Notes: generated by a model not told the origin, from the letters alone. A stretch of 33,912 bases of DNA from Gemmatimonadota bacterium (GCA_039589355.1 JBDHHM010000004.1:1-33912), one strand, 5' to 3'; numbered from the stretch's first letter, positions 5,436 through 24,328 are shown. Program-made: numbers and translations.

Positions 5436-6926
<1,491 letters not shown>

Positions 6927-6994
6927 CGCTCCGAGAATAAGCGCCTGCCCGGCTGTCGCAAGACGCAGGATCCGGTCGCAACGCGAGGAGGCTT

Positions 6995-7765
6995 GTGGAC
7001 CTTCTACTCAGAGGGCTGATCGCCGTCGGCGCAGCGGCGGCCGTGTCGGCATCCGCCTGGCAGCTGCGTGCGCTTACCGCACGAGGTGCGGTGGCGGGGA
7101 CTTTGGTGGGAAGCGCGGTGTTCGGCTCTGCGGGTCTCGGGCCGGCCGTCGTGCTGGTGGCCTTCTTCGTGAGCTCGAGCGCGCCATCGATGCTACCGGG
7201 CGGCGGCGCGCGGTCGAGGCGCGGGGCGCGCCAGGTGCTGGCCAACGGATCGGTGGCGGCGCTGGCCGCGTGCTTCCATTCGCTGCACCCGTTTGCGGAC
7301 TTGGCACTGCTGGGCGCCGTCGCCGCCGCCACGGCCGACACCTGGGCTACGGAGGTGGGAGTGCGTCTGGGGCGGCGGCCGCGCTCCATCCTCACGCTGC
7401 GGCGGCAACCGCCCGGAACTTCCGGGGCCGTCTCGCTTCCCGGGACGCTGGGGGCGGCGGCGGGGGCGCTGGCCGTAGCGGGCGCGGGCGGCTGGCTCGT
7501 GCCGGGCCTCGATGCCGGCGCCCTGATCGCAGTCGCGCTGGGTGGCCTGGCGGGCTCTTTGGCAGATTCGGTGGCGGGTGCGGGCTTCCAGGCCGTCTAC
7601 CGCTGTCCGGCCTGCGGGGCGACCCCGGAGGTGTCGCGCCACTCAGGCTGCCCGGAGCGCGCTCTCCGGGTCTCGGGCCTCCCGGGGGTCGACAACGACG
7701 CGGTAAACCTGATCGCCACCGCCACGGGAGCCGCCGCCTCCGTGCTGGCTCTGTTGCTTGTTTAG
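6995..7765 (+). CDS. DUF92 (TMEM19/VTE6-like) integral membrane protein
   Basis: QVLANG, AAATADTWATEVG, PPGTSGAVS, DS..GA..QA.Y.C..C and DNDAVN motifs; GTG start after gaggagg RBS. Confidence 0.85.
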   Translation: MDLLLRGLIAVGAAAAVSASAWQLRALTARGAVAGTLVGSAVFGSAGLGPAVVLVAFFVSSSAPSMLPGGGARSRRGARQVLANGSVAALAACFHSLHPFADLALLGAVAAATADTWATEVGVRLGRRPRSILTLRRQPPGTSGAVSLPGTLGAAAGALAVAGAGGWLVPGLDAGALIAVALGGLAGSLADSVAGAGFQAVYRCPACGATPEVSRHSGCPERALRVSGLPGVDNDAVNLIATATGAAASVLALLLV

Positions 7766-7909
7766 CGGCCGATATTTAGGCGGTCGCATTGGTTTTGAAG
7801 GGTCCGCTCAACTTGACCGGTACGGCCATTCGATGTTCTTTTCGTTGTCGGACTTGCCGTCCCTGCAAAACCCGCCATATAGTCGTGCGCAACCCTAGCC
7901 GGAGGCTCC

Positions 7910-8884
7910 ATGTCTCGGTCGCCGAAACGGGCCCGTGAAGCCGTATTCTCCAAGGCCGCCGACGCCCTGAACGAGGACACCGCTCAAATGGCGGCGGATT
8001 GGGCCGAGGCCTTCGAGAAGCGGGTTTCGGAACGCGGAGAACCGTTTCCCTACGGTGGCCTGCAGACGGACGTCGAGGCGCTGGTCAAAGGCGTGTCCGC
8101 GGTTCTCAACGACCCGTGGTACTACCGCAGCTTCCTGGGCGAGGGCGATAACCAGCAGATCGGCCGGCGCCTGGCGGAGAAGCACGTCCAGGCCGGCGGC
8201 ACGCTGATCAGCGCCCTCGAGGCCTACATGCGGCTGCGCCAGGCGATGATCCTGGCCTCTCGCGACGTGTTCCGGGACAGCGACCGGCCATTCTTCGATT
8301 TGATGACGCGGTTGAACCGCTGCATCGACCGGATCCTCTTCGCCATCGCAGAGGGCTACTTCAGCGCCTTCCAGGCCGAGATCGAGAAGCAGGCGGTCAC
8401 CGACCCACTGACTGGGCTCGGCAACTCCCGGCGCTTCCGGGAAGCGCTGGCTGCCGAGCTCAAGCGCAGCGACCGGACCGGCCGCCACTTCTCCATCGTC
8501 TTCGTCGACGTCGACGATTTCAAGGATATCAACGACAGGATCGGCCACGTCGAGGCCGATTACACCCTCACGGCCGTCGGCCGGGCGCTCGCCTCGCAAC
8601 TGCGTGGCAGCGACCTCATCTGCCGCTGGGGCGGCGACGAATTCATCATCATGCTGCCCGAGACCGAGCGCCAGGAGGCCGGAGTGCTCGCCGAGCGCCT
8701 GCGGACTTCCGTCGCAGATTGTGACAAGTGTGCCGGCGCCACCATTTCCCTCGGGGTCGCCTGCCACCCGGTGGACGGCAAGGACTACGACAGCCTGGTG
8801 GCCAACGCCGACCGGGCGCTTTACGCCTCCAAGGACCGCGGAAAGAACGTCGTGACCCAGAGCGCCGCCGGCAGCGGGCGCTGA
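7910..8884 (+). CDS. Diguanylate cyclase with N-terminal RsbRD_N/globin-like helical domain
   Basis: TDPLTGL.N, DVDDFKDIND..GH, intact I-site RGSD five residues before GGDEF; ggagg RBS. Confidence 0.9.
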   Translation: MSRSPKRAREAVFSKAADALNEDTAQMAADWAEAFEKRVSERGEPFPYGGLQTDVEALVKGVSAVLNDPWYYRSFLGEGDNQQIGRRLAEKHVQAGGTLISALEAYMRLRQAMILASRDVFRDSDRPFFDLMTRLNRCIDRILFAIAEGYFSAFQAEIEKQAVTDPLTGLGNSRRFREALAAELKRSDRTGRHFSIVFVDVDDFKDINDRIGHVEADYTLTAVGRALASQLRGSDLICRWGGDEFIIMLPETERQEAGVLAERLRTSVADCDKCAGATISLGVACHPVDGKDYDSLVANADRALYASKDRGKNVVTQSAAGSGR

Positions 8885-9179
8885 GACACCTCGCCCCATC
8901 CAGCAGTCACCCCCAAACCCCAGTAACCAAGCCAAAACCCCCATAGCGCAGGCCGCCGCCGCACCCTTGGCGGGCAGCCGTTTTGACGGCGATTCCCGCC
9001 CCGGGCCAGTCATAGTATGTGGTGTGGGCGCAAGTGATGGGGAGCATTGCGATTTACGGCGGATGCATTATGATGGCGAAGTTCTCAGATTCAATGCTGA
9101 GAATGATTACTGTCGATTAGCCCCCCGATGTGACGGTTTGCCCCACCTCCTCCGCCGTCGCTGGAGCCTGCGGCTCTGG

Positions 9180-9192
9180 TAAGTGCTTGATA
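9180..9192. promoter_or_regulatory. Candidate IHF binding site
   Basis: TAAGTGCTTGATA matches YAANNNNTTGATW, the reverse complement of the IHF consensus WATCAANNNNTTR, in an AT-richer intergenic region. Confidence 0.45.
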
Positions 9193-9219
9193 TTTAAGAG
9201 ATTAGGTGATTGGCACCGG

Positions 9220-9235
9220 CGGCCTGATACCTGCA
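9220..9235 (+). promoter_or_regulatory. Candidate sigma-54 -24/-12 promoter
   Basis: CGGCCTG-ATAC-CTGCA has the GG-N10-GC spacing and partly matches TGGCACG-N4-TTGCW; about 90 bp upstream of the ATG at 9322. Confidence 0.35.
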
Positions 9236-9321
9236 TAGCGGGCGTATGAGTCCTAAGCTCTCAAATGCAGCAATTGACGGTCTACATATCTCAGAACCGG
9301 TTGTACCAAGGAGGGGTAGCT

Positions 9322-10743
9322 ATGAAGCATCGACGTTGGATTGGGGCCGTCCTGGCGATGTCCCTCGGTTTCCTGGCGTTGGGCTGCGACGGAGACACCA
9401 TCATACAGGAGGTTGGAGCCGACTTCAGCCTGTACTCCTACCAGGGGAACTTCGGTGAGCCGTGTCTCCACTGTCACTCCACGAACGTCGACAACGTGCT
9501 AACCACCAATCACAGCTTCGCGTACGAGGACCTCGGTGAGAGTCAGTCGAACCTGTACTGCCTCCAGTGCCACACGGTCGGATTCGACTCATACGTCGAG
9601 TACGGCGACACGGAGATCTTGGACGAGAACCGGGGTCCGGACGAGCATGGGTACGACGACTACGTGGGTGTCGACACGGAGGAGGCGGCGGCGCGCCGGT
9701 TGGCTCTCGAGGCCGTGCAGTGTGAGTCGTGTCACGGGCCGATGGGTCCGAACTTCAACGCTCACAAGCCCGAGATCTCGTTCTCGACGCACTATGTCGG
9801 GACGGAGACCACTTCTCTCTGCGAGCAGTGCCACCATACTCAGGTCGAGGAATGGGTAGAGTCCGGGCACGCGAACGCGGCCGGCGGCAATATCGACGAC
9901 TTCAACGACGAACACTACGCGCATAGCTCGAGCTGCCAGCCTTGCCACACGTCGGAAGGGTTCATCGAAGCCAACGACCCGGCCTACGCCGACTATGAGT
10001 TCGGCGAGGAGGTCAGCTTCATTGGCTGCCCGACCTGCCACGACCCGCACAAGGGCGAGGCCGGCGGAGGCAACTACGCTCAGCTGCGCAACATCACGGC
10101 GGAGGAAGTCCAGTACACCTTCCCGTACGAGCCCGGCGACCCCGAAGTCCCAACGATGGAGGGCTACGGCCCGGCGCAGACCTGCGCACAGTGTCACCAC
10201 GGGCGCCGCGACACCGACAACGTGCTGGGCCAGATCGCCGACGGGTACGGTCACTTTGGGCCGCACCACAGCAACCAGATGGACATGTACATCGGCGGTG
10301 GCTCCTATCAGATCCCGGGCTACACGTACGATGGCGTCCACCAGCATCAGGGCATCACGCTTGCCTGCGTGGAGTGTCACATGGTGCGCGAGACCGAGCT
10401 GCACGGCGAGCTGGTCGACCACCCGTTCCACACGTGGGAGCCGACGGTGGAGAACTGCTTGCCGTGCCATGCCGGCATCCCCGATTTCGACGTGAACGGC
10501 CTGCAGACGACGATTCAAGGCAAGCTGGATCAGCTGGCGGTGCTGCATGGCTATACCGACTTCGCCGATCTCGAAGCGAACTGGGACAGCGAGGCGCCGG
10601 GTGTGCTGGTGTGGGAGCGGGAAGCGATTTACGCGGCCTTCTTCATATTCGACGACGGAAGCTTGGGTCTCCATAACCCGACCTACGCGAACTCGCTGCT
10701 CGACAACGCGATCGCGTACACGATCCTTATGCAGGGTCCGTAG
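9322..10743 (+). CDS. Nonaheme c-type cytochrome lipoprotein (OmcB/c552-like), paralog 1
   Basis: aggagggg RBS then ATG 9322; signal peptide with lipobox LALG-C; nine CxxCH (CLHCH, CLQCH, CESCH, CEQCH, CQPCH, CPTCH, CAQCH, CVECH, CLPCH); C-terminal DGSLGLHNPTY helix region. Confidence 0.88.
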   Translation: MKHRRWIGAVLAMSLGFLALGCDGDTIIQEVGADFSLYSYQGNFGEPCLHCHSTNVDNVLTTNHSFAYEDLGESQSNLYCLQCHTVGFDSYVEYGDTEILDENRGPDEHGYDDYVGVDTEEAAARRLALEAVQCESCHGPMGPNFNAHKPEISFSTHYVGTETTSLCEQCHHTQVEEWVESGHANAAGGNIDDFNDEHYAHSSSCQPCHTSEGFIEANDPAYADYEFGEEVSFIGCPTCHDPHKGEAGGGNYAQLRNITAEEVQYTFPYEPGDPEVPTMEGYGPAQTCAQCHHGRRDTDNVLGQIADGYGHFGPHHSNQMDMYIGGGSYQIPGYTYDGVHQHQGITLACVECHMVRETELHGELVDHPFHTWEPTVENCLPCHAGIPDFDVNGLQTTIQGKLDQLAVLHGYTDFADLEANWDSEAPGVLVWEREAIYAAFFIFDDGSLGLHNPTYANSLLDNAIAYTILMQGP

Positions 10744-10756
10744 AGCGACCCGACGC

Positions 10757-10790
10757 GATGCGCGCGAGGTGGTCTTGCCTCGCGCGCATC
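10757..10790 (+). other. GC-rich stem-loop immediately after the stop codon
   Basis: Perfect 13 bp stem gatgcgcgcgagg / cctcgcgcgcatc with an 8 nt loop and no U-tract. Confidence 0.7.
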
Positions 10791-10818
10791 ACGTCTCAGG
10801 TTCCACGGGGGGAATTCG

Positions 10819-10862
10819 ACGGAGACCGGAGCTGACGCAGATGCTTCTGGTTTCCGTTTTTT
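10819..10862 (+). terminator. Rho-independent terminator
   Basis: Stem acggagaccggagc / gcttctggtttccgt (with G-U pairs) running into a T6 tract. Confidence 0.75.
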
Positions 10863-11163
10863 GCTGAGAGATCTAACAAGGTCCTGCTTGATAGCGGTGT
10901 TCAGGATGGGCCTTGACGTGATTCAGCAGTGGCGAAAGGTTGTTTCATTCGGCACGTGGTAGGCGCGGGTCGTACCCGTTTCCCGCCACGGGCATGCCCA
11001 AATCTCGCGCAGCCGCACATTCGAGATACGGGATTCGAGAGGTAGGGGTCACGGGCCCGTGTGAAGGCGGGCCGAGGTCCCCGGCCCCGAGGCTGGCGAA
11101 CAGCCGGGCTGTTCGCGAACGCGGCGCGGGGCGCGAATAGCACCAGCGTAACGGGAGGCATCC

Positions 11164-12753
11164 GTGACTGACAGAGTTACAGCACCGAGGAGAGGGCCGA
11201 AGCTCTCTCGCGCCCTGCCGGGGATCTTGCTGCTGGTTCTCGTCGTGGGCGGCGTGGCGTGCATCGACGAGGACGCTGTGTTCGACCGTCCCAGCAACGA
11301 TGAGCCGACGGAGACGACGAACAACTTCCTCGGCTACGTGGGCGATCCGGCCGAGCAGTGGACATCGTGCGGCAATTGTCACGCGACGTTCCAGGCCGGC
11401 TGGGCATCTACCGGCCATTCCGAGGCGTGGGCAGGCCTTCAGTCGAGCGACCACGCTGCAGAGTTCTGCGAGGGCTGCCACACGATCTCGGAGCTGGGGA
11501 ACCCGCTCACCGAGCCGGCGGGCTACAACCTGGTGAAGGACGAGCGCTACACCGACGTGCAGTGCGAGTCATGCCACGGTTCCGGCTGGGATCACGTGAA
11601 TGACCCGAATGTGGAAAACGCACCGCTCTGCTCGATCGTAGCGGCGACGGACGCGACCGTGGGATGCGGCGAGTGCCACCAGGGCACGCACCATCCGTTC
11701 ATCGAGCAGTGGGAGGAATCGGCCCACGCCAATGTCGGCTTCGCTGCGGGGCGCGCCGGCTGCAACGAGTGCCACGAGGGCCGGGTAGCGATGGTGCGGA
11801 AGTTCTTCGAGACGTCGAACTACATCGAGAAGGACGGCGACGAGGAAATGGCGATCGTCTGCGCGGTCTGCCACGATCCGCACGGCACGGACTTCGAGGG
11901 CAACCTGCGGGCGCCGATCGATGTCGAGAGCTCGGGCCTGCCCGGCGAGAGCCACCTCTGCTTCCAGTGCCATTCGCGGCGCGGCACGCCGCCGTCGGAT
12001 CATGGCCCGCACGCTGCGCAGGGCCTCGTCGTGCTCCAGGAGGATGTCGGCTGGATACCCGCCGGCTTCGAGTTCCCGGATCTCGCCGGCCACGGCGATC
12101 CGGCGCAAAACGAGCATCTGTGCGTGACCTGCCACGTGGCAGAATACGAGTTTACGGATCAGTCCACCGGGGAAGACTTCACTTCGGTGGGTCACTTGTT
12201 CGAAGCGCTCCCCTGCCTGGATCAGGTCACCGGATTGCCCGTGGGCGGTGGTGATTGCGACGTCAGCGAGAAGTCCTTCAGCAGCTGCCTGGCGTGCCAC
12301 GGCAGTGAGAATGAAGCTCGCTTCTTCTACACCTTGCTCAAGGACGATCTCAACGAGTTACTGGATTCACTCTGGGTTGACGTCGATCTCGACGGTGTGA
12401 TGGATCCTTTCCCGGATGATACGGGACTGCTGCCGCAGATCATCTTGCGGGCGGTGTCTTCTCCAGAGGATACCGTACAGCTCGATCCGCGGGACGGCAT
12501 CGTCACGGTGGCCGAGGGCACGATGTGGAACGCGCAGCTCGCCCACACCTCGGACAAGCCCTGGTTCGCCGGAGCCATAGTCTACGAGGGGATCGCCGGG
12601 CCCGACGAAGATGAGCCGCCGGACGGGATTCCGGACGGCATCGAATGGTCGGCGCATAAAGCGAGCGGCGACGGGGTCCATAACCCGAACTTCCTGGAGG
12701 ACCTGCTGGTGGCTTCGATCGAAGCCATGCTGGCAGAGTACTTCGGAGGATAA
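11164..12753 (+). CDS. Nonaheme c-type cytochrome lipoprotein (OmcB/c552-like), paralog 2
   Basis: gggagg RBS, GTG start, lipobox GVA-C; nine CxxCH (CGNCH, CEGCH, CESCH, CGECH, CNECH, CAVCH, CFQCH, CVTCH, CLACH); C-terminal SGDGVHNPNF. Confidence 0.88.
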   Translation: MTDRVTAPRRGPKLSRALPGILLLVLVVGGVACIDEDAVFDRPSNDEPTETTNNFLGYVGDPAEQWTSCGNCHATFQAGWASTGHSEAWAGLQSSDHAAEFCEGCHTISELGNPLTEPAGYNLVKDERYTDVQCESCHGSGWDHVNDPNVENAPLCSIVAATDATVGCGECHQGTHHPFIEQWEESAHANVGFAAGRAGCNECHEGRVAMVRKFFETSNYIEKDGDEEMAIVCAVCHDPHGTDFEGNLRAPIDVESSGLPGESHLCFQCHSRRGTPPSDHGPHAAQGLVVLQEDVGWIPAGFEFPDLAGHGDPAQNEHLCVTCHVAEYEFTDQSTGEDFTSVGHLFEALPCLDQVTGLPVGGGDCDVSEKSFSSCLACHGSENEARFFYTLLKDDLNELLDSLWVDVDLDGVMDPFPDDTGLLPQIILRAVSSPEDTVQLDPRDGIVTVAEGTMWNAQLAHTSDKPWFAGAIVYEGIAGPDEDEPPDGIPDGIEWSAHKASGDGVHNPNFLEDLLVASIEAMLAEYFGG

Positions 12754-12883
12754 TTGACATACGAGCGACCGGCCGCGCGCTGAAGCGGGGCCGGTCGCGC
12801 CTGCCGGCCCCGCCCGTCCGGGAGACGTTGAGGCGGGGCCATGAAGCCGGAAATATCACTCATCCGGGATTCGGGAGGAAAAA

Positions 12884-14404
12884 GTGAGGGTCTCAGACCT
12901 ATCTCAGACGCGGGTCGGGGCCCGGCTCCAAAGCTGGCGAGTTGGAGTCGCGCTCCTCGGCGCCGCCGTCGTATGGGGTAGCTGGGGTTCGGCCGCTCTC
13001 TACGCGCAGCAATGGCGAGCTCGCGCCACGACTCGTGTCCAATATGTCGAGGCGCAGACGCTGGCCCTCGACAGCGTAGAGGTCGGCATGACCACCGGGA
13101 GCGGGACGCAGCGCGAGTTCAGCGGCATCCTCGTTACCTGCGCAACCGGTGCGAACTACTGCTACTACTATCGTTCGGACGAGAAGATCTCGACTGTACC
13201 AGTGTGGCTGGACCTCGACCTGAACGTCTTCGGCTTCGGGATCGAGGGGTTACGGTTCTATGCTAATACGCGGTTCCGCGGAGCGCTCGGCGCGAGCGAG
13301 GAGAAGTTCTGGCCACGAACGGAGAATGACCACTTCGATGTTTTCGCCGCCTACCTGGAGTTGAACCGGCCGTCGTATCGGGTCCGACTCGGGCGCGATT
13401 ACCAGACGAGCGGGCTCGGGTGGTACGGCTACGACGGCATCTCGGTTCTCTGGCGCTATCGGCCGGTTCGCCTCGAGCTGGAGGCGTACGGCGGCTGGGG
13501 GCTGGAGCGCGGTCTGCCGGAGCGAGTCACGTCGAGCGCCCTCGAGTCGCTCGGCTCGTTCCAGCCGCTCAACGACAACTACTTGTTCGGCTTTCGCGGC
13601 TCGGCAACGCCCCTGCAGGGGCTGTCGCTCGAGGCCATCTACCAGCGGGAAATAGAGACCGATCGCTCGGGAATCAGCTCGGAGCGAGTCGGTTTCGAGG
13701 CCGCCTATGTCACGCGCAACCGACGGCTGCGACTCGACGGCCATGCCGACTACGACCTGGCCGCGGGCTGGTGGGGCAAGGCCGGCGCGAAGCTGGGTTG
13801 GACGCCCAACGACCTTCTGTACCTGGAGGGCCGGTACCTGCGCTATCGCCCGGTCTTCAGTCTGCAGACGATCTGGGCGGCGTTCAGCCCGGTGGCCTAC
13901 ACCGGCTACGGCTTAGCGTTGGGCATTCGGCCGGGCTACAACCTGGACATCCGGCTGGACGCCGAGAAGCGCAACTACGGCGATACCGGCGCGGAGACTT
14001 CGTTCTACGTGACGACTGACGACAGCTGGCGGACCGGTATGTGGGCGAGCTGGCGACCGCTGGCCGACTGGAACTTCCAGGGCGCTTACTGGTTGAACTG
14101 GGGCTTCGGCTCGGCGATCAGTGCCGGCGACCTGCGGGCCGACTACTACCCGATGCCGGACCTATCGGTCGGCGCGCGGTTCTCGAGGTTCGTCCAGCAG
14201 TGGGAGTTCCGGGTCGGCGAGGGTCAGACCTGGAGCGTCGGGCTGGACTCCCGCTGGCGTACCCGCGTCGGGACGCTGTATGCCGGGATCGAGCGCTACC
14301 AGAACGACCGGAAAGACGACGCGGCTGCCATCGATTGGACCCAGTGGCGGGCCGTGTTTGGACTGTCCTACTATCTGGGTTCGGAACCTGGGAGGACAAG
14401 GTGA
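12884..14404 (+). CDS. Outer-membrane beta-barrel protein, putative porin of a porin-cytochrome complex
   Basis: Signal peptide (..ALYA-QQ); Trp/Tyr/Gly/Arg-rich alternating amphipathic strands throughout; terminal strand WRAVFGLSYYL; no CxxCH; located between multiheme cytochrome genes. Confidence 0.8.
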   Translation: MRVSDLSQTRVGARLQSWRVGVALLGAAVVWGSWGSAALYAQQWRARATTRVQYVEAQTLALDSVEVGMTTGSGTQREFSGILVTCATGANYCYYYRSDEKISTVPVWLDLDLNVFGFGIEGLRFYANTRFRGALGASEEKFWPRTENDHFDVFAAYLELNRPSYRVRLGRDYQTSGLGWYGYDGISVLWRYRPVRLELEAYGGWGLERGLPERVTSSALESLGSFQPLNDNYLFGFRGSATPLQGLSLEAIYQREIETDRSGISSERVGFEAAYVTRNRRLRLDGHADYDLAAGWWGKAGAKLGWTPNDLLYLEGRYLRYRPVFSLQTIWAAFSPVAYTGYGLALGIRPGYNLDIRLDAEKRNYGDTGAETSFYVTTDDSWRTGMWASWRPLADWNFQGAYWLNWGFGSAISAGDLRADYYPMPDLSVGARFSRFVQQWEFRVGEGQTWSVGLDSRWRTRVGTLYAGIERYQNDRKDDAAAIDWTQWRAVFGLSYYLGSEPGRTR

Positions 14405-15306
14405 GTTACCGCCGACCTGCAGGAGCTTTGCTGGTCGCCGCTCTGCTGGCGGCCGTGAGTGCATGGGGCTGGTCGATGAGCGGCGGTGATATTTTCGACC
14501 ACAACAAGCACGCCACCCTGTTCTCGAGTTGCGACGGCTGTCACTCGGTCCAGCCGGCGGAGGTCTCCTTCCCGGATCCGAGCTTCTGCCAGGGCTGCCA
14601 TAACGGACAGATAGCTCGAGAGGTGGATTGGCAGGAACCGACGCGGCGGGCGAACCGGTTCGGATTCAACCACGCCGACTATGTCGCCGAGCAGGAGGCC
14701 GCCGGCGAAGAGGTCAGCTGCAGCAGCTGCCACATGGCGGACAGTGGAGAACCGATGGACGTCCGGCGTTCTCCAGCGTTCCACACGCCCTTCTACCTGA
14801 GCGATCACCGGGCGCTGGCTGCGTCGGCGACCGCCGATTGCGAGACCTGTCACGTCCGGGAACAGCGTTGCCTCGGCTGCCACACGGGCTCCGAGAACCT
14901 GGACACGCCGAGCCAGGAGCAGGGCCTGTATCACACGCTAAACTTCATGCAGCAGCACTCCGCCGCTGCCTGGAGCCGGGAGACGGAGTGCTCGAGCTGT
15001 CACAACCCGGAAGCGTTCTGCCGCAGCTGCCATCTCGGCCTCGGTCTGGGGGCAGGAGAAGGCCGGACGGATACCGGATTCCATAACTGGAATCCGAACT
15101 TCCAGTTCGGGCACGGCCAGGCGGCACGGCAGGGGCTCGAGAGTTGCGCCTCGTGTCATGCACAGTCGGACTGTTTGGCGTGCCATTCGGCGAAGAGTGG
15201 GCGCAACATCAATCCGCACGGCCCGGACTTCGACGCGGATAGGCTGCGCGACAAAAATCCGCAGCTGTGCCTGTTTTGTCACTTCTCATCCATCTTGGAG
15301 CCGTAG
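14401..15306 (+). CDS. Periplasmic decaheme c-type cytochrome (OmaB-like)
   Basis: GTG 14401 overlaps the porin stop (GTGA) with a ggagg RBS; signal peptide; ten CxxCH, including three tight CxxCH-x4/5-CxxCH pairs, each preceded by two His. Confidence 0.85.
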   Translation: MSYRRPAGALLVAALLAAVSAWGWSMSGGDIFDHNKHATLFSSCDGCHSVQPAEVSFPDPSFCQGCHNGQIAREVDWQEPTRRANRFGFNHADYVAEQEAAGEEVSCSSCHMADSGEPMDVRRSPAFHTPFYLSDHRALAASATADCETCHVREQRCLGCHTGSENLDTPSQEQGLYHTLNFMQQHSAAAWSRETECSSCHNPEAFCRSCHLGLGLGAGEGRTDTGFHNWNPNFQFGHGQAARQGLESCASCHAQSDCLACHSAKSGRNINPHGPDFDADRLRDKNPQLCLFCHFSSILEP

Positions 15307-15329
15307 CTCTGAGAGCCTGAAAGAAGGCT

Positions 15330-15378
15330 GCCGCCGTCGCCGGGCGCCTCATTGGCACGCCGGCGACGGCGGCTTTCT
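15330..15378 (+). terminator. Probable terminator of the porin-cytochrome operon
   Basis: 14 bp perfect stem gccgccgtcgccgg / ccggcgacggcggc followed by tttct. Confidence 0.6.
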
Positions 15379-15486
15379 CCTAAGTCCGCAAAGCAGTAAC
15401 TTTATAGCCAGAAGAAATTCCTTAAAAACGCCACGCACATATCAGATCCGCACGACTACCAGGTCATTGCGACGCAGGGGGCAATC

Positions 15487-16683
15487 ATGACCGGTAAGCT
15501 CATTCGCGGGATCGCTACGGGCAGCGCCATCCTGCTGCTGGGGTCTCCTCGATCTTCGTCCGCACAGCCAACAGCAGAGCTCTCGCAGGACCCGTTGGCC
15601 GGCTCTCAGGTGTTCGAGAGCAAAGGTTGCTCTAAGTGTCACGCAGTGAACGGGTTAGGCGGCACGGTAGGACCCGATCTGGGGCGCATCCAGGAGGGCC
15701 GCTCGTTCAACGAGCTGGCGGCGACATTGTGGAACCACGTCCCGCTGATGGGCGCCGGGATGGCGGAGCTGGGGATCGAGTATCCCGAGATGACGGCTAG
15801 GGAAGCGGCGGACCTGGTCAGCTTCCTGTTTACGCTGGACTACTTCGATGCGCCGGGTGACGTAAGGATTGGGATGCATCTGTTCACGCACAAGAAGTGC
15901 TTCGTCTGTCACCGGGTGGGCGACTACGGCGGTGATGCTGCCCACAACCTCGATTTCGCTGGGCAGTATGGGTCCCCCATCCTCGTGGCCGCCGCGATGT
16001 GGAACCACAGCGCGCCGATGGCAGAGCTGATGGAAGAGCGTGGCGTAGTGCGTCCCACGTTCGAGGGGTCCGAGCTCGCGGACCTGATCTCGTACATCGA
16101 GTCGGCCGCGCCCCAACCGGTGGAGGGACGGGTGTATGTCCTGCCGGGGCGCGCCGAGGCCGGGCGTACGGTATTCCTCGAGAAGCGCTGCAACCAGTGC
16201 CATAGCGTCCAGGGGATCGGTGGCCGCCTGGGACCGGACCTCGCCGAAATGGGCCGTCAGTGGGGGCTGACCGAGTTCGCCGCTGCCATGTGGAACAAAG
16301 CTCCGGCGATGCTCGAGGCAATGGAATCAATCGATCTGCCTGCCCCGAAGCTGGGCGGTGGTGAGATGGCCGATCTCGTCGCCTATCTCTACTACATCGA
16401 GTACTTCGCAGAGCCGGGTGATAGCGAACGGGGTGAGCAGGTCCTGCATCAGAAAGGCTGCTTAAGTTGTCACGCGTTGCGCGGCAGCGGTGGAACCGCG
16501 GCCTCCGATCTCGCCTGGGTCAGCGATATCGGCTCGCCCGCCGCGGTGACCGCCTCGTTGTGGAACCACTCTGTGAAGTTGGCGACCATGCCTCAGGCCT
16601 GGCAGAAGGAGTGGCCGACCTTCGACGCCGAGGAGATGGCGGACCTCACGGCGTTTCTCGAGGAGCTGGAGAAGAGCCGTTAG
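15487..16683 (+). CDS. Periplasmic tetraheme protein made of four tandem class I cytochrome c domains
   Basis: Signal peptide; four repeats of G..VF..K.CxxCH...G..GPDL...WNH..M (CSKCH, CFVCH, CNQCH, CLSCH). Confidence 0.85.
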   Translation: MTGKLIRGIATGSAILLLGSPRSSSAQPTAELSQDPLAGSQVFESKGCSKCHAVNGLGGTVGPDLGRIQEGRSFNELAATLWNHVPLMGAGMAELGIEYPEMTAREAADLVSFLFTLDYFDAPGDVRIGMHLFTHKKCFVCHRVGDYGGDAAHNLDFAGQYGSPILVAAAMWNHSAPMAELMEERGVVRPTFEGSELADLISYIESAAPQPVEGRVYVLPGRAEAGRTVFLEKRCNQCHSVQGIGGRLGPDLAEMGRQWGLTEFAAAMWNKAPAMLEAMESIDLPAPKLGGGEMADLVAYLYYIEYFAEPGDSERGEQVLHQKGCLSCHALRGSGGTAASDLAWVSDIGSPAAVTASLWNHSVKLATMPQAWQKEWPTFDAEEMADLTAFLEELEKSR

Positions 16684-16888
16684 TCCCGCCGGGCGGCGCA
16701 GGCGCCTCTTTTGCATCTTGTTCCCGTTGAACGGTTTACGCGCCCTGGCGTGGCAAGATCGACGCCTCTTGCCAGAGCCGGCCGTGTTGCCTAAGGTCTA
16801 GCTGATGGGAAGTGGTCAGGTCAGGACACGTCACGCCCGGATTGGTGTATAAGGATGGGTGTGGCCCTCATCTGAAAGGGAGCTGAAC

Positions 16889-17287
16889 ATGAGTCATCGA
16901 CGTTCAATCGGAGCTTTTGTTTTTCTGCTGGTCGCGCTGGCCGCATTCGCGTGGCAGCAGGAGGGTTGGAAGACGCCGCCGGCCATGGCACACGATGCTG
17001 CCGGTCGTGACAACTGCATGATGTGCCACAAGGCGGGAGCCATGGAGCCGGTGCCCGACGCGCCGGCGAACCATGCGGAACGCCCGAACGAGATCTGCCT
17101 GATGTGCCACGCGGCGGACGCTGCGGTGCAGACGACGGCACCAACTGCAACGTCGCACCCGCTCGAGGGTCGAGATAACTGCATGATGTGTCATACGGCC
17201 GGGGCGATGGAGCCGGTGCCAGACGCACCGGCGGACCATGAGGGCAGGGACAACCAGAACTGCGCGCTCTGTCACGCACCGGCTTAG
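16889..17287 (+). CDS. Small periplasmic tetraheme cytochrome c (duplicated NapB-like diheme module)
   Basis: aaagggag RBS, ATG 16889, signal peptide (AFA-W); CMMCH, CLMCH, CMMCH, CALCH; 55-aa internal repeat. Confidence 0.85.
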   Translation: MSHRRSIGAFVFLLVALAAFAWQQEGWKTPPAMAHDAAGRDNCMMCHKAGAMEPVPDAPANHAERPNEICLMCHAADAAVQTTAPTATSHPLEGRDNCMMCHTAGAMEPVPDAPADHEGRDNQNCALCHAPA

Positions 17288-17301
17288 CTGTAGCTACCCG
17301 A

Positions 17302-17335
17302 CGGGCGCGCCTTCCGTACCGGGGAGGCGCGCCCG
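17302..17335 (+). terminator. GC-rich stem-loop after the small tetraheme gene
   Basis: cgggcgcgccttcc / gggaggcgcgcccg stem; U-tract weak or absent. Confidence 0.5.
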
Positions 17336-17461
17336 ATTAGTGCCCGTACACCCCAGCGCACACTTCAGCGAGCTCGATTCCGTCGTGCTGACCTCTTCGC
17401 GCTCTGATCGGAGCCGGGAGTCCACCAGTCGCGCTCGACTCGTATCGTCCGGGGCCTTCCG

Positions 17462-18202
17462 ATGACGATCACACCGGGGACCGTTTTCATCTTCGCGTTG
17501 GTAACCGCCGCGGCTACCGGTCTCGGCGCACTGCCTTTCCTCTTCTTACGCCGCATGACGCGCACCTGGCTGGCGATGGCGAACTCGGTGGCGGCGGGCC
17601 TGATGATCGCGGCGAGCTTCGGGCTGATCTACGAAGGACTCGAGGCGGGCCTGCTGAGCGTTGTATCCGGCGCGCTCATCGGTGTCGTTTTCATGGCATT
17701 CAGCAGTCACTGGCTCAGGGGCCGCCGCGAGCTCGAACTCGGCATGCTGCGCGGTACGGATGCCCTGAAGGCGCTGATGATCATCGGAGTGATGACGCTG
17801 CACTCCGTGACCGAGGGAGTGGGCGTCGGCGTCTCGTTCGCCGGCGGCGATGCGCTCGGCGTGTTCATCACCACCGCTATCGCGGTCCACAACATCCCCG
17901 AGGGGTTGGCCATCAGTCTCGTGCTCGTCCCGCGCGGCGAAAGCGTCCGGCGCGCGGCCGGCTGGAGCGTCTTCTCGAGCCTGCCGCAGCCGCTGCTCGC
18001 CGTTCCGGCCTTCATCTTCGTAGCAACGTTCCAGCCCTATCTTCCCGTCGGCCTGGGATTCGCCGGCGGCGCCATGATCTGGATGGTCTTCTCCGAGCTT
18101 ATACCCGAGGCCTTGGATGACGCGTCCAGCCCGGCCGTGGCGACCGTAGTCACGCTGTCGCTCATGGCGATGATCGGGTTCCAGTGGTTCCTTCGGGGCT
18201 AG
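17462..18202 (+). CDS. ZIP-family (GufA/ZupT-like) divalent metal transporter
   Basis: ATGLGALP, LHSVTEG and VHNIPEGLA metal-site helices, ELIPEA. Confidence 0.9.
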   Translation: MTITPGTVFIFALVTAAATGLGALPFLFLRRMTRTWLAMANSVAAGLMIAASFGLIYEGLEAGLLSVVSGALIGVVFMAFSSHWLRGRRELELGMLRGTDALKALMIIGVMTLHSVTEGVGVGVSFAGGDALGVFITTAIAVHNIPEGLAISLVLVPRGESVRRAAGWSVFSSLPQPLLAVPAFIFVATFQPYLPVGLGFAGGAMIWMVFSELIPEALDDASSPAVATVVTLSLMAMIGFQWFLRG

Positions 18203-18375
18203 CGGTTGTCGCAGAATGCCCCGCCCAGGCCTCTTACGTCGCTGATCCGCCCGCCCTTGGAATTGCGTCCCCGCTAGTAAAACCCATTATTGACCACGGG
18301 TTGCCGGGAGGTCAGGCCTGAGCGTCGTCGCGCGGCCCGCGGTTTGCCGTCAAGAACGGTTATAGGAGGGCATCG

Positions 18376-18714
18376 ATGCACGAGATGTCGCTCGCACTGG
18401 AGATTCTGTCGATCTGCGAGCGTGAGCTGGAGAAGCTGCCGGAGACCCGGGTCACGGCGCTGGGCGTCGAGGTGGGTGCCTTCTCCGGCGTCGATGCCGA
18501 TAGCCTGCAGTTCTGCCTCGAGGTCATGATGTCCGACCGCTTCGATGGGGTTCGCTGCGAGGTGGTGCGCGAGCCGGGCGAGGCCGCATGTCCGACGTGC
18601 GATAACCGGTTCGAGGTGATGCAGGCGCCCTTCGAGTGCCCGGAGTGCGGCGGACTGGCGCGCGGTCTCTCGGGTGGGCAGGGCCTTCAACTCAGTTATC
18701 TCGAGGTGGAGTGA
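18376..18714 (+). CDS. hypA: Hydrogenase nickel metallochaperone HypA
   Basis: N-terminal MHE, CPTC and CPEC zinc site, aggagg RBS. Confidence 0.95.
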   Translation: MHEMSLALEILSICERELEKLPETRVTALGVEVGAFSGVDADSLQFCLEVMMSDRFDGVRCEVVREPGEAACPTCDNRFEVMQAPFECPECGGLARGLSGGQGLQLSYLEVE

Positions 18715-18719
18715 GAGCG

Positions 18720-19391
18720 ATGAGCGCCGAGCGTGTCGAAGTCAAAGAGAAGGTCTTGAGCGCGAACGACCAGATAGCGGCGGAGGCTCGCGCTCAGCTC
18801 GTTGGCCACGGCGTGTTCTCGGTCAACATCATCTCGTCGCCGGGCTCGGGGAAGACCACCCTGCTGGAACGTACTGTGGATCTGTTGAAGCCGTCGTTGC
18901 GCCTCGGGGTAGTGGCCGGCGACGTGCAGACGCGCAACGATGCGGAGCGGCTGGAGCGGCACGGGATCCCGGTGCAGGCGATCGAGACGGGCGGCGGCTG
19001 TCACCTGAACGCTCGTCAGGTGTCGGAGAGCCTCGCGTCGCTCGATCTGGCGCAGACCGACCTGTTGTTCATCGAGAACGTCGGCAACCTGGTCTGCCCG
19101 TCATCGTTCGACCTCGGTGAGTCGCTGAAGGTGGTGCTGATGAGCGTGACAGAAGGCGAGGACAAACCGCTCAAGTACCCGGCGGCGTTCAGGCGCGCGA
19201 GCGTGCTGGTGATCACCAAGGTCGACCTCTTACCGCACCTCGAGTTCTCGACCCAGACGGCCATCGACAACGCGCTCTCGATCAACCCGGATCTCACCGT
19301 CTTCTCGACTTCGTCCTACACCGGAGAGGGGCTGGAGTCTTGGACGGAGTGGCTTACAGGACAGGTATCGGCGTGTAAGCAAGGCTCGTAA
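18720..19391 (+). CDS. hypB: Hydrogenase nickel-incorporation GTPase HypB
   Basis: SSPGSGKTT, GGGCHL, ENVGNLVCP, EGEDKPLKYP, TKVD; ATG 6 bp after the hypA stop; no N-terminal His-rich extension. Confidence 0.95.
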   Translation: MSAERVEVKEKVLSANDQIAAEARAQLVGHGVFSVNIISSPGSGKTTLLERTVDLLKPSLRLGVVAGDVQTRNDAERLERHGIPVQAIETGGGCHLNARQVSESLASLDLAQTDLLFIENVGNLVCPSSFDLGESLKVVLMSVTEGEDKPLKYPAAFRRASVLVITKVDLLPHLEFSTQTAIDNALSINPDLTVFSTSSYTGEGLESWTEWLTGQVSACKQGS

Positions 19392-19392
19392 A

Positions 19393-21669: not shown

Positions 21670-21845
21670 ACATCCAACATCGGACATCCCACGTCCAACA
21701 TCGAAGACTGCGGCGCTGAGCGCCTTGAACACTGGACTTCGAACGTTCAACGCTCAGCATCGAACTTCGATGTTAGGCGTTCGGTTTTCGATGTACGAGT
21801 GTTAGCTCGGAGTCCGATGTGGGATGTTCAATGTTCGATGTTCAC
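21669..21845. repeat. AACATCS-type heptamer repeats in inverted arrangement between convergent hypF and hypE
   Basis: aacatcc-aacatcg-gacatcc-cacgtcc-aacatcg at left; cgatgtg-ggatgtt-caatgtt-cgatgtt at right; a second degenerate pair in the middle. Confidence 0.8.
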
Positions 21846-21847
21846 TT

Positions 21848-22900
21848 CTAACATATCCGGGGCAGCGGTTCTCCTTCGGGCTCCGTCAGCAGGCGACGGC
21901 CGAAGCCGGTGTCGAGGACCAGGCGTCCGGCGTGCTCTTCCATACAGGTGCCGATAATGGCTGCGTCGCCGCCCTGGGGGTGAGATCGTAGAGCATCGAG
22001 CACGGCATCGGCTGCTTCCGGTCGCACTCCGATCACCGCCTTCCCTTCGTTCGCGATGTGGAACGGGTCGAGCCCGAGGACCTCGGCGGCGGAGCGAACC
22101 ACCTGTGTGATAGGAACCTGTGATTCCTCGAGCACGATTCCGACACGGCTCTTCTCGGCCATCTCGGTAAGCGCGCTCGCCAGGCCGCCGCGGGTCGGGT
22201 CTTTCATCGCTACGATGGCGCCGTCGGCGGCGTCGAGTGCGCCGCGGATCAGCCGGTTGATCGGGGCGACGTCGGACCGCAGGTCACCCTCGAGCCCGAG
22301 GTTGCGGCGGGCGGCCATGAGGGCGATCCCGTGGTCGCCTATGGGGCCGCTGAGGATGATGCGGTCGCCGGACGCGAGCCCGGAGTCGGACACGACGGAG
22401 TCGGCAAGCGCTACGCCGGTCGTGTTGATTATTACGCCGTCCAGCTCGCCGTGACCCATCACCTTCGTGTCACCTGTGATGATCTTCGCCCCCGCCTCGC
22501 GACACGTTTCCTGCATCGAGCGCTGAATCCGCTCCAGGTCGGACTGAAGAAAGCCCTCTTCGATGACGAGCGCCGAAGTCAAGCCCAATACTTCGGTGGC
22601 GCCCATCATCGCCAGGTCGTTTACCGTGCCGGCAACGGCCAGTCGCCCGATGTCGCCGCCCGGGAAAAAGACGGGATGGATGACGTGCGAGTCTGTGGTG
22701 ACAACCAGCCAGCGATCGCCGACCGGGAGCGCTGCGCCGTCGTCGAAAGCCGCGAGGCCGATCTCTTCCGCTTCGCCCTCGATAAACCCTGCCGCCAGCG
22801 TCTCCTCGATCAGCATCCGCATTGCGCGCCCGCCGGCGCCGTGCTTCAGCGTGATGATCTCGTCCCGGGGGCGGCCTCCCGCGCTGGGGCCAGCGCTCAT
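21848..22900 (-). CDS. hypE: Hydrogenase maturation protein HypE
   Basis: HGAGG, TTDSH, FFPGGDIG.LAV.GTVND, TGDTKV, DPTRGG, ANEGK and C-terminal PRIC. Confidence 0.97.
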   Translation of the reverse strand: MSAGPSAGGRPRDEIITLKHGAGGRAMRMLIEETLAAGFIEGEAEEIGLAAFDDGAALPVGDRWLVVTTDSHVIHPVFFPGGDIGRLAVAGTVNDLAMMGATEVLGLTSALVIEEGFLQSDLERIQRSMQETCREAGAKIITGDTKVMGHGELDGVIINTTGVALADSVVSDSGLASGDRIILSGPIGDHGIALMAARRNLGLEGDLRSDVAPINRLIRGALDAADGAIVAMKDPTRGGLASALTEMAEKSRVGIVLEESQVPITQVVRSAAEVLGLDPFHIANEGKAVIGVRPEAADAVLDALRSHPQGGDAAIIGTCMEEHAGRLVLDTGFGRRLLTEPEGEPLPRIC

Positions 22901-24033: not shown

Positions 24034-24328
24034 CGCTCTTCTCACCACGCCGGGTCTTGGCGGTAGCCTCGATCTCGCCCCGCACGTCGGCTGCCATCAT
24101 GTCGCTCTCGGCCGCCTGCAGCAGCTCCTCGTAGAGGGCCAGCGTCTCCTCGACTTCTTCGGAGGGGATCTTCCTTATGGCGAAGCCGACGTGGTTCAGG
24201 ATATAGTCACCAACCTCCACCGGCTGGTCTACGATGTCGAGGCGCACCTCCCGCCTGACGCCCCAGAAGTCGACCGTCGCCAGCAACCCATTCACCGCTA
24301 AAATCTTACCGGGTACACCTAGGCACAT
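24026..24328 (-). CDS. hypC: Hydrogenase maturation chaperone HypC
   Basis: Starts MCLGVPG (ATG 24328); VGDYILNHVGFAI motif. Confidence 0.96.
   Translation of the reverse strand: MCLGVPGKILAVNGLLATVDFWGVRREVRLDIVDQPVEVGDYILNHVGFAIRKIPSEEVEETLALYEELLQAAESDMMAADVRGEIEATAKTRRGEKSDA

Follow-up and report, generated by a model that had tools for sequence, protein, structure and literature searches.

The DNA analysed here, referred to below as the window, is a stretch of 33,912 nucleotides (nt) from a Gemmatimonadota bacterium (GCA_039589355.1, JBDHHM010000004.1:1-33912). Within this 33.9-kb stretch, the plus strand carries six cytochrome-related genes in series (9265-17287). Three consecutive members of the series encode a nonaheme lipoprotein cytochrome, an outer-membrane beta-barrel and a decaheme cytochrome. 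These three genes probably specify a porin-cytochrome complex, that is, an electron conduit across the outer membrane, with the lipoprotein as its outer partner. Porin-cytochrome conduits are the route by which diderm bacteria respire minerals, corrode metals and exchange electrons with electrodes. An earlier note, made from the sequence alone, had proposed a distinct porin-cytochrome variant at this place. The fold of the barrel, a predicted interface within its lumen, and the fact that none of the three proteins falls into the corresponding Mtr family all support this proposal. The unit has the following features, with protein lengths in amino acids (aa).

11164..12753, plus strand: OcwA-like nonaheme lipoprotein cytochrome, 529 aa, nine CXXCH motifs, N-terminus ending ...GGVAC
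12765..12798, plus strand: strong intercistronic hairpin without a U-tract, directly 3' of the stop codon of the 529-aa gene
12884..14404, plus strand: predicted outer-membrane beta-barrel, 506 aa, about 22 strands in the AlphaFold2 fold, no CXXCH motif
14401..14404, plus strand: GTGA stop/start overlap of the barrel and decaheme genes, from sequence reading
14401..15306, plus strand: decaheme cytochrome, 301 aa, Sec-type signal, ten CXXCH motifs
15330..15381, plus strand: terminator-like hairpin and then CTTTCTCC, ending the three-gene unit, from a consensus scan and folding

A conserved gene unit with an overlapping junction

The anatomy of the unit is as the earlier note described it. Direct reading shows that the barrel gene's TGA stop (14402-14404) shares bases with the GTG at 14401 from which the decaheme gene is translated, giving GTGA. 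The lipoprotein gene, with its nine CXXCH heme motifs and a lipobox cysteine at residue 33, ends 130 nt before the barrel start (gap 12754-12883). A Shine-Dalgarno-like GGGAGG lies 5-6 nt 5' of all three start codons. The terminator-like element after the decaheme gene is a long, G+C-rich hairpin (15330-15373) followed by CTTTCTCC, and the terminator consensus scan picks out its core at 15358-15371. This hairpin folds with a z score of -4.11, and 0 of 200 shuffled sequences fold as well.

The decaheme gene could have been drawn differently, as a 421-aa open reading frame (ORF) covering 14041-15306, and this alternative was ruled out. The 301-aa protein is present in the protein database as P0121 (100% identity and coverage). 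Its start is placed at the overlap because P0121 and 36 aligned homologues begin there. A database entry for the barrel, P0003 (461 aa), is identical to the window's protein over residues 69-427 and then diverges, consistent with a one-base frameshift in a different assembly, made from the same genome or from one almost identical to it. Unlike P0003, the barrel encoded in the window is full-length relative to its homologues. In the genome from which the window comes, the barrel is encoded once, and 17 ORFs have four or more CXXCH motifs.

Relatives were collected by a pattern scan of one genome per species, which yielded 395 loci encoding a relative of the barrel. The best 80 were kept and are referred to by L numbers. 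Seventy-six are labelled Gemmatimonadota, three are unclassified and one (L075) is labelled Krumholzibacteriota; Longimicrobiales and Ca. Kutchimonas labels were placed in Gemmatimonadota, where we take them to belong. A gene with at least five CXXCH motifs lies downstream of the barrel gene, on the same strand, in all 70 loci that have at least 1 kb of downstream flank. A gene with at least five such motifs is also found within 700 nt upstream in 61 of the 66 loci with at least 1.8 kb of upstream flank, and 54 of 58 loci have both. This gene arrangement is far beyond chance. The barrel and its cytochromes are clustered and inherited together, as is expected of a porin-cytochrome complex.

Scripted scoring finds an ATGA or GTGA overlap between the barrel and downstream genes at 75 of 75 junctions, the window included. 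Reading by eye adds two loci that end early but have the same overlap (L001 and L073), as well as L059, where the overlap is CTGA in the same register. L012, L024 and L071 end ahead of the junction. A/GTGA is therefore present at 77 of the 78 readable junctions, and the barrels of the junction loci are 32-95% identical to that of the window. The persistence of the overlap across such divergence indicates that it is under selection for coupled synthesis of the two proteins. The translational coupling suggested in the earlier note is thus strongly backed.

The heme content of the flanking genes varies among these relatives. In loci where the barrel shares 52% identity or more with that of the window, the upstream gene encodes 8-9 hemes in about 500 aa, mostly with a lipobox followed by acidic residues. 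The downstream gene in these loci mostly encodes 9-10 hemes, and 16 in three cases. Four others have 5, 5, 7 and 12 CXXCH motifs downstream, with at least one of these genes cut by the end of the locus. In loci at 32-38% barrel identity, the downstream cytochrome mostly has 16 hemes, and the OcwA-like and barrel genes are separated by the gene for a further cytochrome, which has either 17-19 hemes or 9 hemes in about 300 aa. The 16-heme protein P0137 keeps the module that is predicted to fill the barrel (window residues 122-301, 66% identity over 180 aa) and also the N-terminal module (22-121), with about 185 aa inserted between the two. Such variation would fit a fixed plug module attached to a periplasmic reach of variable length. 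A relative of the 529-aa lipoprotein is encoded in 55 of the 80 loci. A second nonaheme lipoprotein of 492 aa, whose gene lies further upstream in the window, has a relative covering at least half its length in 27 of the 80.

The lipoprotein gene is set apart from the barrel gene by a second hairpin. The intercistronic stretch 12750-12885 folds with a z score of -4.87, and again 0 of 200 shuffled sequences are as good. A hairpin of differing sequence occupies the same position after the stop codon in L002 (6864-7003, z -5.28) and L027 (6764-6900, z -3.34). The stretch taken at that site in L014 has no hairpin (z -0.58), and the element, a long, perfect hairpin lacking a U-tract, is thus present in three of the four loci folded. 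It may serve as a processing or stability element that gives the lipoprotein and the barrel-decaheme pair different levels. An Rfam scan of 8800-17600 returned nothing at E<=0.1, which leaves the intergenic hairpins outside every described RNA family.

A profile built from the barrel family detects it in 181 of 401 genomes sampled evenly across the phylum of the window. Among genomes with a completeness of 90% or more the count is 180 of 395, and by genus it is 80 of 147. The idea that the family is widely shared outside Gemmatimonadota was dropped, since in the phylum given for L075 just 1 of 101 sampled genomes has the barrel, and that genome is the source of L075 itself. Searched against 1.84 billion representative sequences, the profile gives 743 matches at E<=1e-3, of which 423 reach E<=1e-10 and 209 reach E<=1e-30. 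The best 150 of the 743 were examined, and all of these are strong matches.

The barrel, its predicted heme filling and the lipoprotein cytochromes

At E<=0.1 the 506-aa protein has no match among the families of Pfam and NCBIfam. A word-indexed search returns 127 relatives, and all of those that carry a name are annotated 'hypothetical protein' of Gemmatimonadota. Its AlphaFold2 model, derived from a 49-sequence alignment, has a predicted local distance difference test score (pLDDT) of 82.0 and a predicted template modelling score of 0.73. Twenty-two long strands can be counted on the DSSP string between residues 43 and 499, with a signal-peptide helix ahead of them. A short hairpin is present in the first long loop, near the invariant cysteines C86 and C93. 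Long connections occur at odd positions and short turns at even ones. In the usual topology of outer-membrane barrels, long loops are extracellular and short turns are periplasmic.

The fold was compared in two ways, by alignment against every PDB representative and with Foldseek. Among the best matches in the first search are BtuB (Z 17.8, root-mean-square deviation (rmsd) 4.8, 362 aligned positions, over residues 135-594 and thus without its plug), the FimD usher (Z 17.8, rmsd 5.1, 335 aligned), which we take to have 24 strands, and Cir (Z 17.4). MtrB is twelfth in this ranking (Z 15.9, rmsd 4.8, 354 aligned). Foldseek returns generic barrels, with FimD first and MtrB at rank 32, and gives the fold class only. 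The Pfam family MtrB_PioB (PF11854) is matched by 0 of 49 barrel family members in a scan at E<=1. Weak Pfam matches among the 49 are to OMP_b-brl (9 members, best E 0.0023) and Porin_4 (7 members, best E 3.5e-6). At E<=1 the family profile retrieves nothing from the PDB, and thus not the MtrB chain 6r2q_B either. In the ESM Atlas, the 30 nearest clusters have no Pfam family in common, and at least three of them are unnamed Gemmatimonadota clusters. The nearest named clusters there are generic outer-membrane barrels, at a score of 0.92.

A TonB receptor was considered as the identity of the barrel and rejected because the plug is absent. The first strand begins at about residue 43, directly behind the signal peptide, which leaves no N-terminal plug, and no Plug or TonB_dep_Rec Pfam domain is found in the window's barrel or in the 49 members. 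As modelled, the 506-aa protein is a plug-less 22-strand outer-membrane barrel, and its family has no name and scarcely occurs beyond Gemmatimonadota. In one 828-aa representative, P0463, the match to the barrel profile takes up the first 452 residues, and about 375 more follow; this protein may be a fusion of barrel and cytochrome or the product of reading through the overlapping stop codon.

For complex prediction, the barrel (residues 41-506) and the mature decaheme cytochrome (24-301) were given their own alignments and folded together without hemes in three runs, with three controls. The interaction prediction score from aligned errors (ipSAE) is 0.75, 0.77 and 0.76 in the three runs, and the best control reaches 0.00. 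Of 157 solved complexes, 116 attain the mark used for this score, as do 2 of 215 mismatched pairs; the calibration is rough here because the alignments were custom-made for this analysis. At least 79% of contacts are shared between runs, and the pLDDT of the cytochrome is 68-70. The earlier note regarded a lumen that is too small or plugged by the barrel's own domain, or the want of a confident interface, as what would speak against its proposal. In the prediction, the interface is confident and the cytochrome lies inside the lumen.

The confident interface consists of 146 barrel residues and 101 cytochrome residues. All 22 strands take part in it, often with an i, i+2 pattern, which is expected for side chains that face the lumen. 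Contacts made by connections are distributed unevenly, with 56 residues from the long loops, on the presumed extracellular side, versus 5 from the periplasmic turns. On the side of the cytochrome, the interface is limited to residues 126-293, which hold heme motifs 4-10. The lowest expected errors are between barrel loop 327-337 and cytochrome residues of about 243-259 and 272-292. This loop is the most conserved motif of the barrel and also the pattern that was used to find relatives in genomes. It touches residues of about 237-259, the most conserved non-heme stretch of the cytochrome.

According to these models, the C-terminal seven-heme module of the decaheme protein fills the lumen of the barrel, and the N-terminal three-heme module is periplasmic. 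A multiheme cytochrome enclosed by an outer-membrane barrel is thus predicted in silico. The C-terminal module has seven invariant histidines outside its heme motifs (H128, H136, H178, H186, H228, H238 and H273), which would suffice for bis-His ligation of seven hemes. The best matches of the decaheme family profile are HmcA (E 5.6e-6) and cytochromes c7, with PpcA-type c7 matching on the N-terminal module, and the protein resembles c3/c7-type cytochromes. It has no match to TIGR03508 (MtrA/DmsE) at E<=0.1, and the profile misses the MtrA chain 6r2q_A at the same threshold.

The hydrophobic N-terminal stretch of the 529-aa lipoprotein ends at Cys33, which is invariant in 44 homologues. By sequence, its best solved relative is OcwA (6i5b_A), with E 3.9e-5 for the single sequence and E 1.1e-15 for the family profile. 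The profile further matches MtrA (6r2q_A, 3.1e-8), cytochrome c554 (7.2e-5) and hydroxylamine oxidoreductases (2e-4); we read the match to the MtrA chain as a probable shared heme-packing module. No match to TIGR03507 (MtrC/OmcA) is found at E<=0.1. The AlphaFold2 model (pLDDT 75.6) combines an N-terminal part rich in hemes with a small sheet and with confident C-terminal helices, of which the long ones span 382-403, 422-440, 449-459 and 508-526. In Foldseek, only two OcwA chains score below E 1e-3 (E 7.9e-5, template modelling scores 0.37/0.40), with about 14% identity in the fold alignment, and NrfA appears at E>0.2. With its nine CXXCH motifs, its sequence relationships, and a C-terminal helical bundle behind the heme domain, the lipoprotein belongs with the OcwA/NrfA-c554-MccA group.

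OcwA is described as a nine-heme terminal reductase at the cell surface of Thermincola potens, related in structure to NrfA, c554 and MccA, and with two five-coordinate hemes under His-His motifs (PMC6703420). The same description has it reducing nitrite and turning over hydroxylamine (PMC6703420). In the profile alignment, an 'hhP' consensus of the 529-aa family, equivalent to His175-His176 of the window's protein with His176 invariant, stands opposite a His-His of OcwA. No second His-His pair occurs among the invariant or nearly invariant columns of the family. Nine invariant histidines outside the heme motifs appear to be enough for bis-His ligation of nine hemes. Because they allow all hemes to be ligated in this way, the lipoprotein may or may not be catalytic. 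By analogy with characterised conduits, we propose that this protein is the outer partner of the barrel-decaheme pair and would be exposed at the surface.

The 492-aa lipoprotein is a distant paralogue of the 529-aa protein (28% identity over 224 aa), and its hydrophobic N-terminus likewise runs up to a lipobox-like cysteine. It has a Pfam Cytochrom_C552 (NrfA-type) match at residues 356-485 (E 3.5e-9) and is a candidate second surface cytochrome.

Neighbouring genes, proposed electron path and competing explanations

Four cytochrome genes around the three-gene unit were overlooked in the earlier reading:

9265..10743, plus strand: second nonaheme lipoprotein cytochrome, 492 aa, nine CXXCH motifs, N-terminus ending ...LALGC
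15487..16683, plus strand: protein with four class-I cytochrome c domains, periplasmic, 398 aa, four CXXCH motifs, Pfam Cytochrom_C
16859..17287, plus strand: small tetraheme cytochrome, 142 aa, four CXXCH motifs, hydrophobic N-terminal segment
24563..27514, minus strand: fusion of a 19-CXXCH region and a b561-type cytochrome b, 983 aa, from Pfam and the CXXCH count

The 398-aa protein, whose gene begins 180 nt downstream of the decaheme gene, matches Pfam Cytochrom_C on four stretches (E 2.4e-28) and is a candidate for the soluble electron carrier of the system. A relative follows the conduit genes in 16 of the 80 loci, all of them within L002-L027, which have the barrels most like that of the window. 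Relatives of the 142-aa tetraheme protein are encoded in 14 of the 80 loci. This small protein is made of two repeats of about 55 residues around ...GRDNCMMCH.AGAMEPVPDAPA.H..., and its match to the magnetochrome domain is faint (E 0.09).

The 983-aa fusion protein has 19 CXXCH motifs, a Pfam Ni_hydr_CYTB match at residues 712-890, and c7, c3 and NapC/NirT-type matches. An NCBIfam formate dehydrogenase gamma-type cytochrome b is also matched (E 4.6e-8), and the membrane domain spans about 711-930. We take the protein to be of the CbcL-type kind, proposed to join the quinone pool to periplasmic cytochromes, and it is a candidate for the inner-membrane quinol/quinone link. Relatives adjoin the conduit genes in 4 of the 80 loci (L009, L010, L036 and L056, at 40-65% identity), and also in L081. 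The connection between fusion and conduit rests on these relatives, because in the window the fusion gene is 9 kb away and on the opposite strand.

L081 (G023:C7:70001-90000) is a 20-kb locus of the same class as the window. Its string of genes (5981-18737) encodes a Rieske protein, a cytochrome b, a 9-heme cytochrome, a 21-heme cytochrome with a NapC/NirT-type start and an 11-heme/cytochrome b fusion. These are followed by the small tetraheme cytochrome, which here is directly upstream of the lipoprotein cytochrome gene, and then by an 8-heme lipoprotein, the barrel and a 16-heme cytochrome. The string has the appearance of an entire quinol-to-surface pathway arranged as a single operon-like unit. 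Divergent from it are hypB and an operon for an uptake-type [NiFe] hydrogenase (small subunit, large subunit and cytochrome b).

In the window, the tetraheme gene is followed by a ZIP gene and then by hypB and hypF, with hypE and hypD on the other strand (hyp region 18636-24048). The fusion gene is directly upstream of hypD and hypE on the same minus strand. Near the conduit in relatives, hypB is found in 8 of the 80 loci, hypF in 5, and hypE and hypD in 3. Loci bearing hyp genes are L003, L005, L017, L019, L021-L023, L049, L066, L068, L074 and L081, and some of these have distant barrels. A [NiFe] hydrogenase large subunit is encoded on the contig of the conduit, 12-20 kb from the barrel gene, in two of five genomes checked. 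A search of the assembly to which the window belongs, 80% complete, did not detect it, and for this reason a hydrogenase link is not demonstrable for the organism of the window. The two nearest genomes (93% and 97% complete) have neither the large subunit nor hypD.

A GGDEF diguanylate cyclase gene (7910-8884, plus strand) lies upstream of the cytochrome genes. It is present in 11 of the 80 loci at 76-94% protein identity, and in the same 11 loci the conduit proteins are far less conserved (barrel 53-84%). The cyclase is a possible cyclic di-GMP regulator of the cluster. Metal transporter genes also surround the cluster, comprising a cation diffusion facilitator (3650-4609, plus strand), the ZIP gene (17462-18202, plus strand) and a P-type ATPase with a heavy-metal-associated domain (27739-29922, minus strand). 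The ZIP gene stands between the cytochrome genes and hypB in 4 of the 80 loci, at 91-94% identity.

These components can be assembled into a mechanism. The plug-less 22-strand barrel would be the sheath of the conduit, and the overlap of stop and start codons would keep synthesis of the decaheme protein in step with it. The seven-heme C-terminal module would act as an insulated heme wire within the barrel, beneath long, conserved extracellular loops, and the c7-like, three-heme N-terminal module would hang into the periplasm. At the outer end, electrons would be exchanged by the OcwA-like nonaheme lipoprotein, probably together with its upstream paralogue. Electrons would be drawn from the quinone pool by the 19-heme/cytochrome b fusion, and the neighbouring soluble cytochromes may pass them on. 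The full path would then run from quinol to the fusion, to periplasmic cytochromes, to the three-heme module, to the seven-heme module, to the OcwA-like lipoproteins and finally to an extracellular acceptor. Outward flow to Fe(III) or Mn(IV) oxides, humics or other insoluble or extracellular acceptors is somewhat favoured over inward flow. The preference is slight because class-I cytochrome and Rieske/cytochrome b genes fit high-potential chains.

Porin-cytochrome complexes are reversible, and the same conduit might work inward. It would then draw electrons from Fe(II), Mn(II), reduced minerals or cathode-like surfaces outside the cell and deliver them to periplasmic class-I cytochromes and onward to oxidases or denitrification enzymes. 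We consider this possibility somewhat unlikely. The four-domain class-I cytochrome gene beside the conduit is what such a route would call for. The Rieske and cytochrome b genes of L081 parallel petB and petC, which a 2026 paper places next to some porin-cytochrome complexes (PCCs); a metagenome-assembled genome (MAG) with this arrangement, SAW209, is given as Gemmatimonadota in its supplementary file 1 (PMC13264449). An association with cytochrome b is likewise described for the PCC4 clusters of iron oxidisers (PMC5566968), and a 2024 survey of marine Gemmatimonadota states that iron oxidation could not be separated from reduction (PMC11316326). On the other side, the closest characterised relative of the outer cytochrome is described as a terminal reductase (PMC6703420). 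The uptake-type hydrogenase on the conduit's contig in two of five genomes would supply electrons rather than receive them, and hyp genes lie beside the conduit in the window and in several other loci.

It is also conceivable, but rather improbable, that the conduit has just two components, the barrel and the decaheme cytochrome, as in MtoAB or PioAB, and that the nonaheme lipoproteins are membrane-anchored feeders or enzymes that face the periplasm, not surface cytochromes. Diderm lipoproteins face the periplasm by default, and we know of no surface-export signal for Gemmatimonadota. Coupling is absolute only for the barrel-decaheme pair (70 of 70 loci downstream as against 61 of 66 upstream), a hairpin and the 130-nt gap part the lipoprotein gene from the pair, and distant loci have another cytochrome gene between the OcwA-like gene and the barrel. 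However, a lipoprotein cytochrome is reported as the outer component in both Mtr and Geobacter Pcc systems (PMC4245776), and OcwA itself is presented as a surface protein (PMC6703420). The predicted position of the C-terminal end of the decaheme protein, under the extracellular loops, would moreover offer a possible docking site for an outer partner.

Very unlikely, in our estimate, is an outer-membrane-linked reductase for a soluble compound such as an oxyanion or N-oxide, by a route of the DmsEF or Ext type. The activities of OcwA on nitrite and hydroxylamine, and its membership in the NrfA/c554/MccA group (PMC6703420), agree with such a function, as does the 'hhP' consensus aligned with a His-His of OcwA. 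Weak NCBIfam similarities to the selenite/tellurite Ext operon (ExtKL, E 8e-4; ExtS, E 1.2e-14) have been found too, but both are far below the curated cut-offs. The nine invariant histidines of the lipoprotein can ligate all of its hemes, which makes an open catalytic heme unnecessary, and the conserved gene string includes no gene for a catalytic subunit, molybdopterin-dependent or other. That the barrel is an ordinary porin or transporter merely situated among cytochrome genes is close to refuted: it would agree with the absence of a family assignment, with the weak Porin_4 and OMP_b-brl matches and with porin and TonB-receptor fold matches as strong as that to MtrB, but a multiheme gene follows in 70 of 70 loci, the overlap is kept at barrel identities down to 32%, and the complex scores 0.76 against 0.00 for the control with all 22 strands in contact.

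Several points weigh against a three-component conduit as set out above. All of the evidence is computational, a search for RNA sequencing runs returned none for 11164-15306, and the loci compared are kin rather than independent trials, which inflates the synteny counts. The complex was folded without hemes, its ipSAE is the model's own confidence, and the fold of the cytochrome within it is only moderately confident. The predictor may also have learned the cytochrome-in-barrel layout from the solved Mtr complex; this worry is countered by the failure of the barrel and decaheme profiles to retrieve the Mtr chains by sequence. That the lipoprotein cytochrome faces outward is something we infer. 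The fusion stands beside hyp genes in the window, at a distance from the conduit, and the class-I cytochrome and Rieske/cytochrome b genes point inward.

Gemmatimonadota are usually treated as aerobic heterotrophs, phototrophs or N2O reducers. A broader reading of the results is that the phylum has built a conduit lineage independently, from a plug-less 22-strand barrel, a separate seven-heme plug, a reach of 10-16 hemes and a recruited outer cytochrome of the OcwA/NrfA type. Our judgement on this broader reading is evenly balanced. It would cover nearly half of the sampled Gemmatimonadota species. If it is true, a cytochrome type so far characterised on a monoderm surface was recruited into a diderm conduit, and electron exchange with minerals would be common among members of a phylum abundant in soils and sediments, some lineages perhaps being fuelled by a nearby-encoded uptake hydrogenase. 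Which soil and sediment taxa are credited with the cycling of iron, manganese and humics would change as well.

To our knowledge, a solved conduit structure exists for the Mtr type only, and surveys lean on few reference families. The locus would define a conduit family that these references overlook, with three Mtr operons reported for marine Gemmatimonadota as against a barrel in 181 of 401 genomes of the phylum. The compact barrel and the 301-aa decaheme protein are candidates for expression and structure solution, and relatives with 10 to 16 hemes on one plug module would provide a natural series of wire lengths. An OcwA-type cytochrome as the outer partner in a diderm is a claim that can be tested.

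Comparison with known systems

The earlier note based part of its case on gene order. The order lipoprotein, barrel, decaheme is indeed unlike that of Geobacter and Shewanella, but order carries little weight by itself because published pcc clusters are not uniform, with between two and nine genes in the survey that describes them (PMC4245776). The note also pointed to the size of the barrel, and the 506-aa protein is shorter than MtrB (649 residues in chain 6r2q_B). The difference in length is less telling than a predicted 22-strand barrel of an unnamed family.

Similarities to MtrCAB are found at the level of design. A lipoprotein multiheme cytochrome, a decaheme cytochrome reaching from the periplasm to the surface and a large barrel are encoded together, and the decaheme protein is predicted to pass through the barrel with its C-terminal end outward. 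Two paralogous lipoprotein cytochrome genes lie upstream, as do omcA and mtrC in the Shewanella order, which we take to be omcA-mtrCAB. The differences are in the parts. MtrB, presumably a 26-strand barrel, resembles the window's barrel in fold (Z 15.9) no more than unrelated barrels do, and the MtrB/PioB family is not matched by sequence. The decaheme protein likewise falls outside the MtrA/DmsE family by both TIGR03508 and 6r2q_A, and the outer cytochrome is of the OcwA/NrfA type rather than MtrC/OmcA. The order of genes differs, and the window's barrel and decaheme genes overlap.

TonB-dependent transporters such as BtuB and Cir, 22-strand barrels, are among the best fold matches. Their lumen is, we assume, sized for a domain of about 150 residues, and the span predicted to fill the barrel here (126-293, 168 residues) is comparable to such a plug. 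In contrast to these transporters, the barrel has no plug of its own, and its predicted filling is a separate heme protein.

The Geobacter Pcc systems also combine a porin-like protein with a periplasmic and an outer-membrane lipoprotein multiheme cytochrome and have extra cytochromes nearby (PMC4245776). Their cytochromes have 8 and 12 hemes, compared with 10 and 9 in the window, and their gene order differs; it is by heme number and gene order that the window is set apart from OmbB-OmaB-OmcB. Gemmatimonadetes are absent from the text of the pcc survey (PMC4245776). OcwA (6I5B) is like the 529-aa lipoprotein in its nine hemes and in a helical C-terminal part that comes after the heme domain. 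It differs in belonging to the cell wall of a monoderm and in having no barrel as partner, whereas its relative in the window is a lipoprotein whose gene adjoins a barrel gene in a diderm.

PCC3 and PCC4 are, like the window's unit, porin-cytochrome clusters of lineage-specific families predicted from genomes. As described, PCC3 has median heme numbers of 34 (extracellular cytochrome) and 21 (periplasmic cytochrome), and PCC4 has three periplasmic cytochromes with 4, 5 and 10 hemes and no extracellular one (PMC5566968). The window resembles PCC4 in having 10-heme and 4-heme cytochromes, and L081 adds an association with a b-type cytochrome. Its own numbers are 9 and 9 (the lipoproteins), 10, 4 and 4 CXXCH motifs, with no 5-heme protein. 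Both PCC3 and PCC4 are also described with an inner-membrane protein of about 300 aa that has two WX3HX13H motifs (PMC5566968), and this motif occurs in no ORF of at least 150 aa in the window. It is by heme numbers and this motif that the window is distinguished from PCC3 and PCC4.

Reports on the phylum itself touch on related genes. A single MtrCAB of Gemmatimonadetes is mentioned in one paper and ascribed to horizontal transfer (PMC8805035). The FeGenie-based survey of marine Gemmatimonadota lists three MtrABC operons and unspecified 'DFE_461-465' and Cyc2 homologues (PMC11316326), and the D. ferrophilus clusters behind the FeGenie 'DFE' models are described as having no apparent porin (PMC9769857). 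One CbcL-type and two ImcH-type homologues are tabulated for the phylum (PMC6295460, Table 1). Our literature searches turned up no description of the barrel family, the three-gene unit, its coupling or an OcwA-type partner. We read the locus as a lineage-specific porin-cytochrome conduit that would be built from parts of its own and would function as the Mtr and Geobacter Pcc conduits do.

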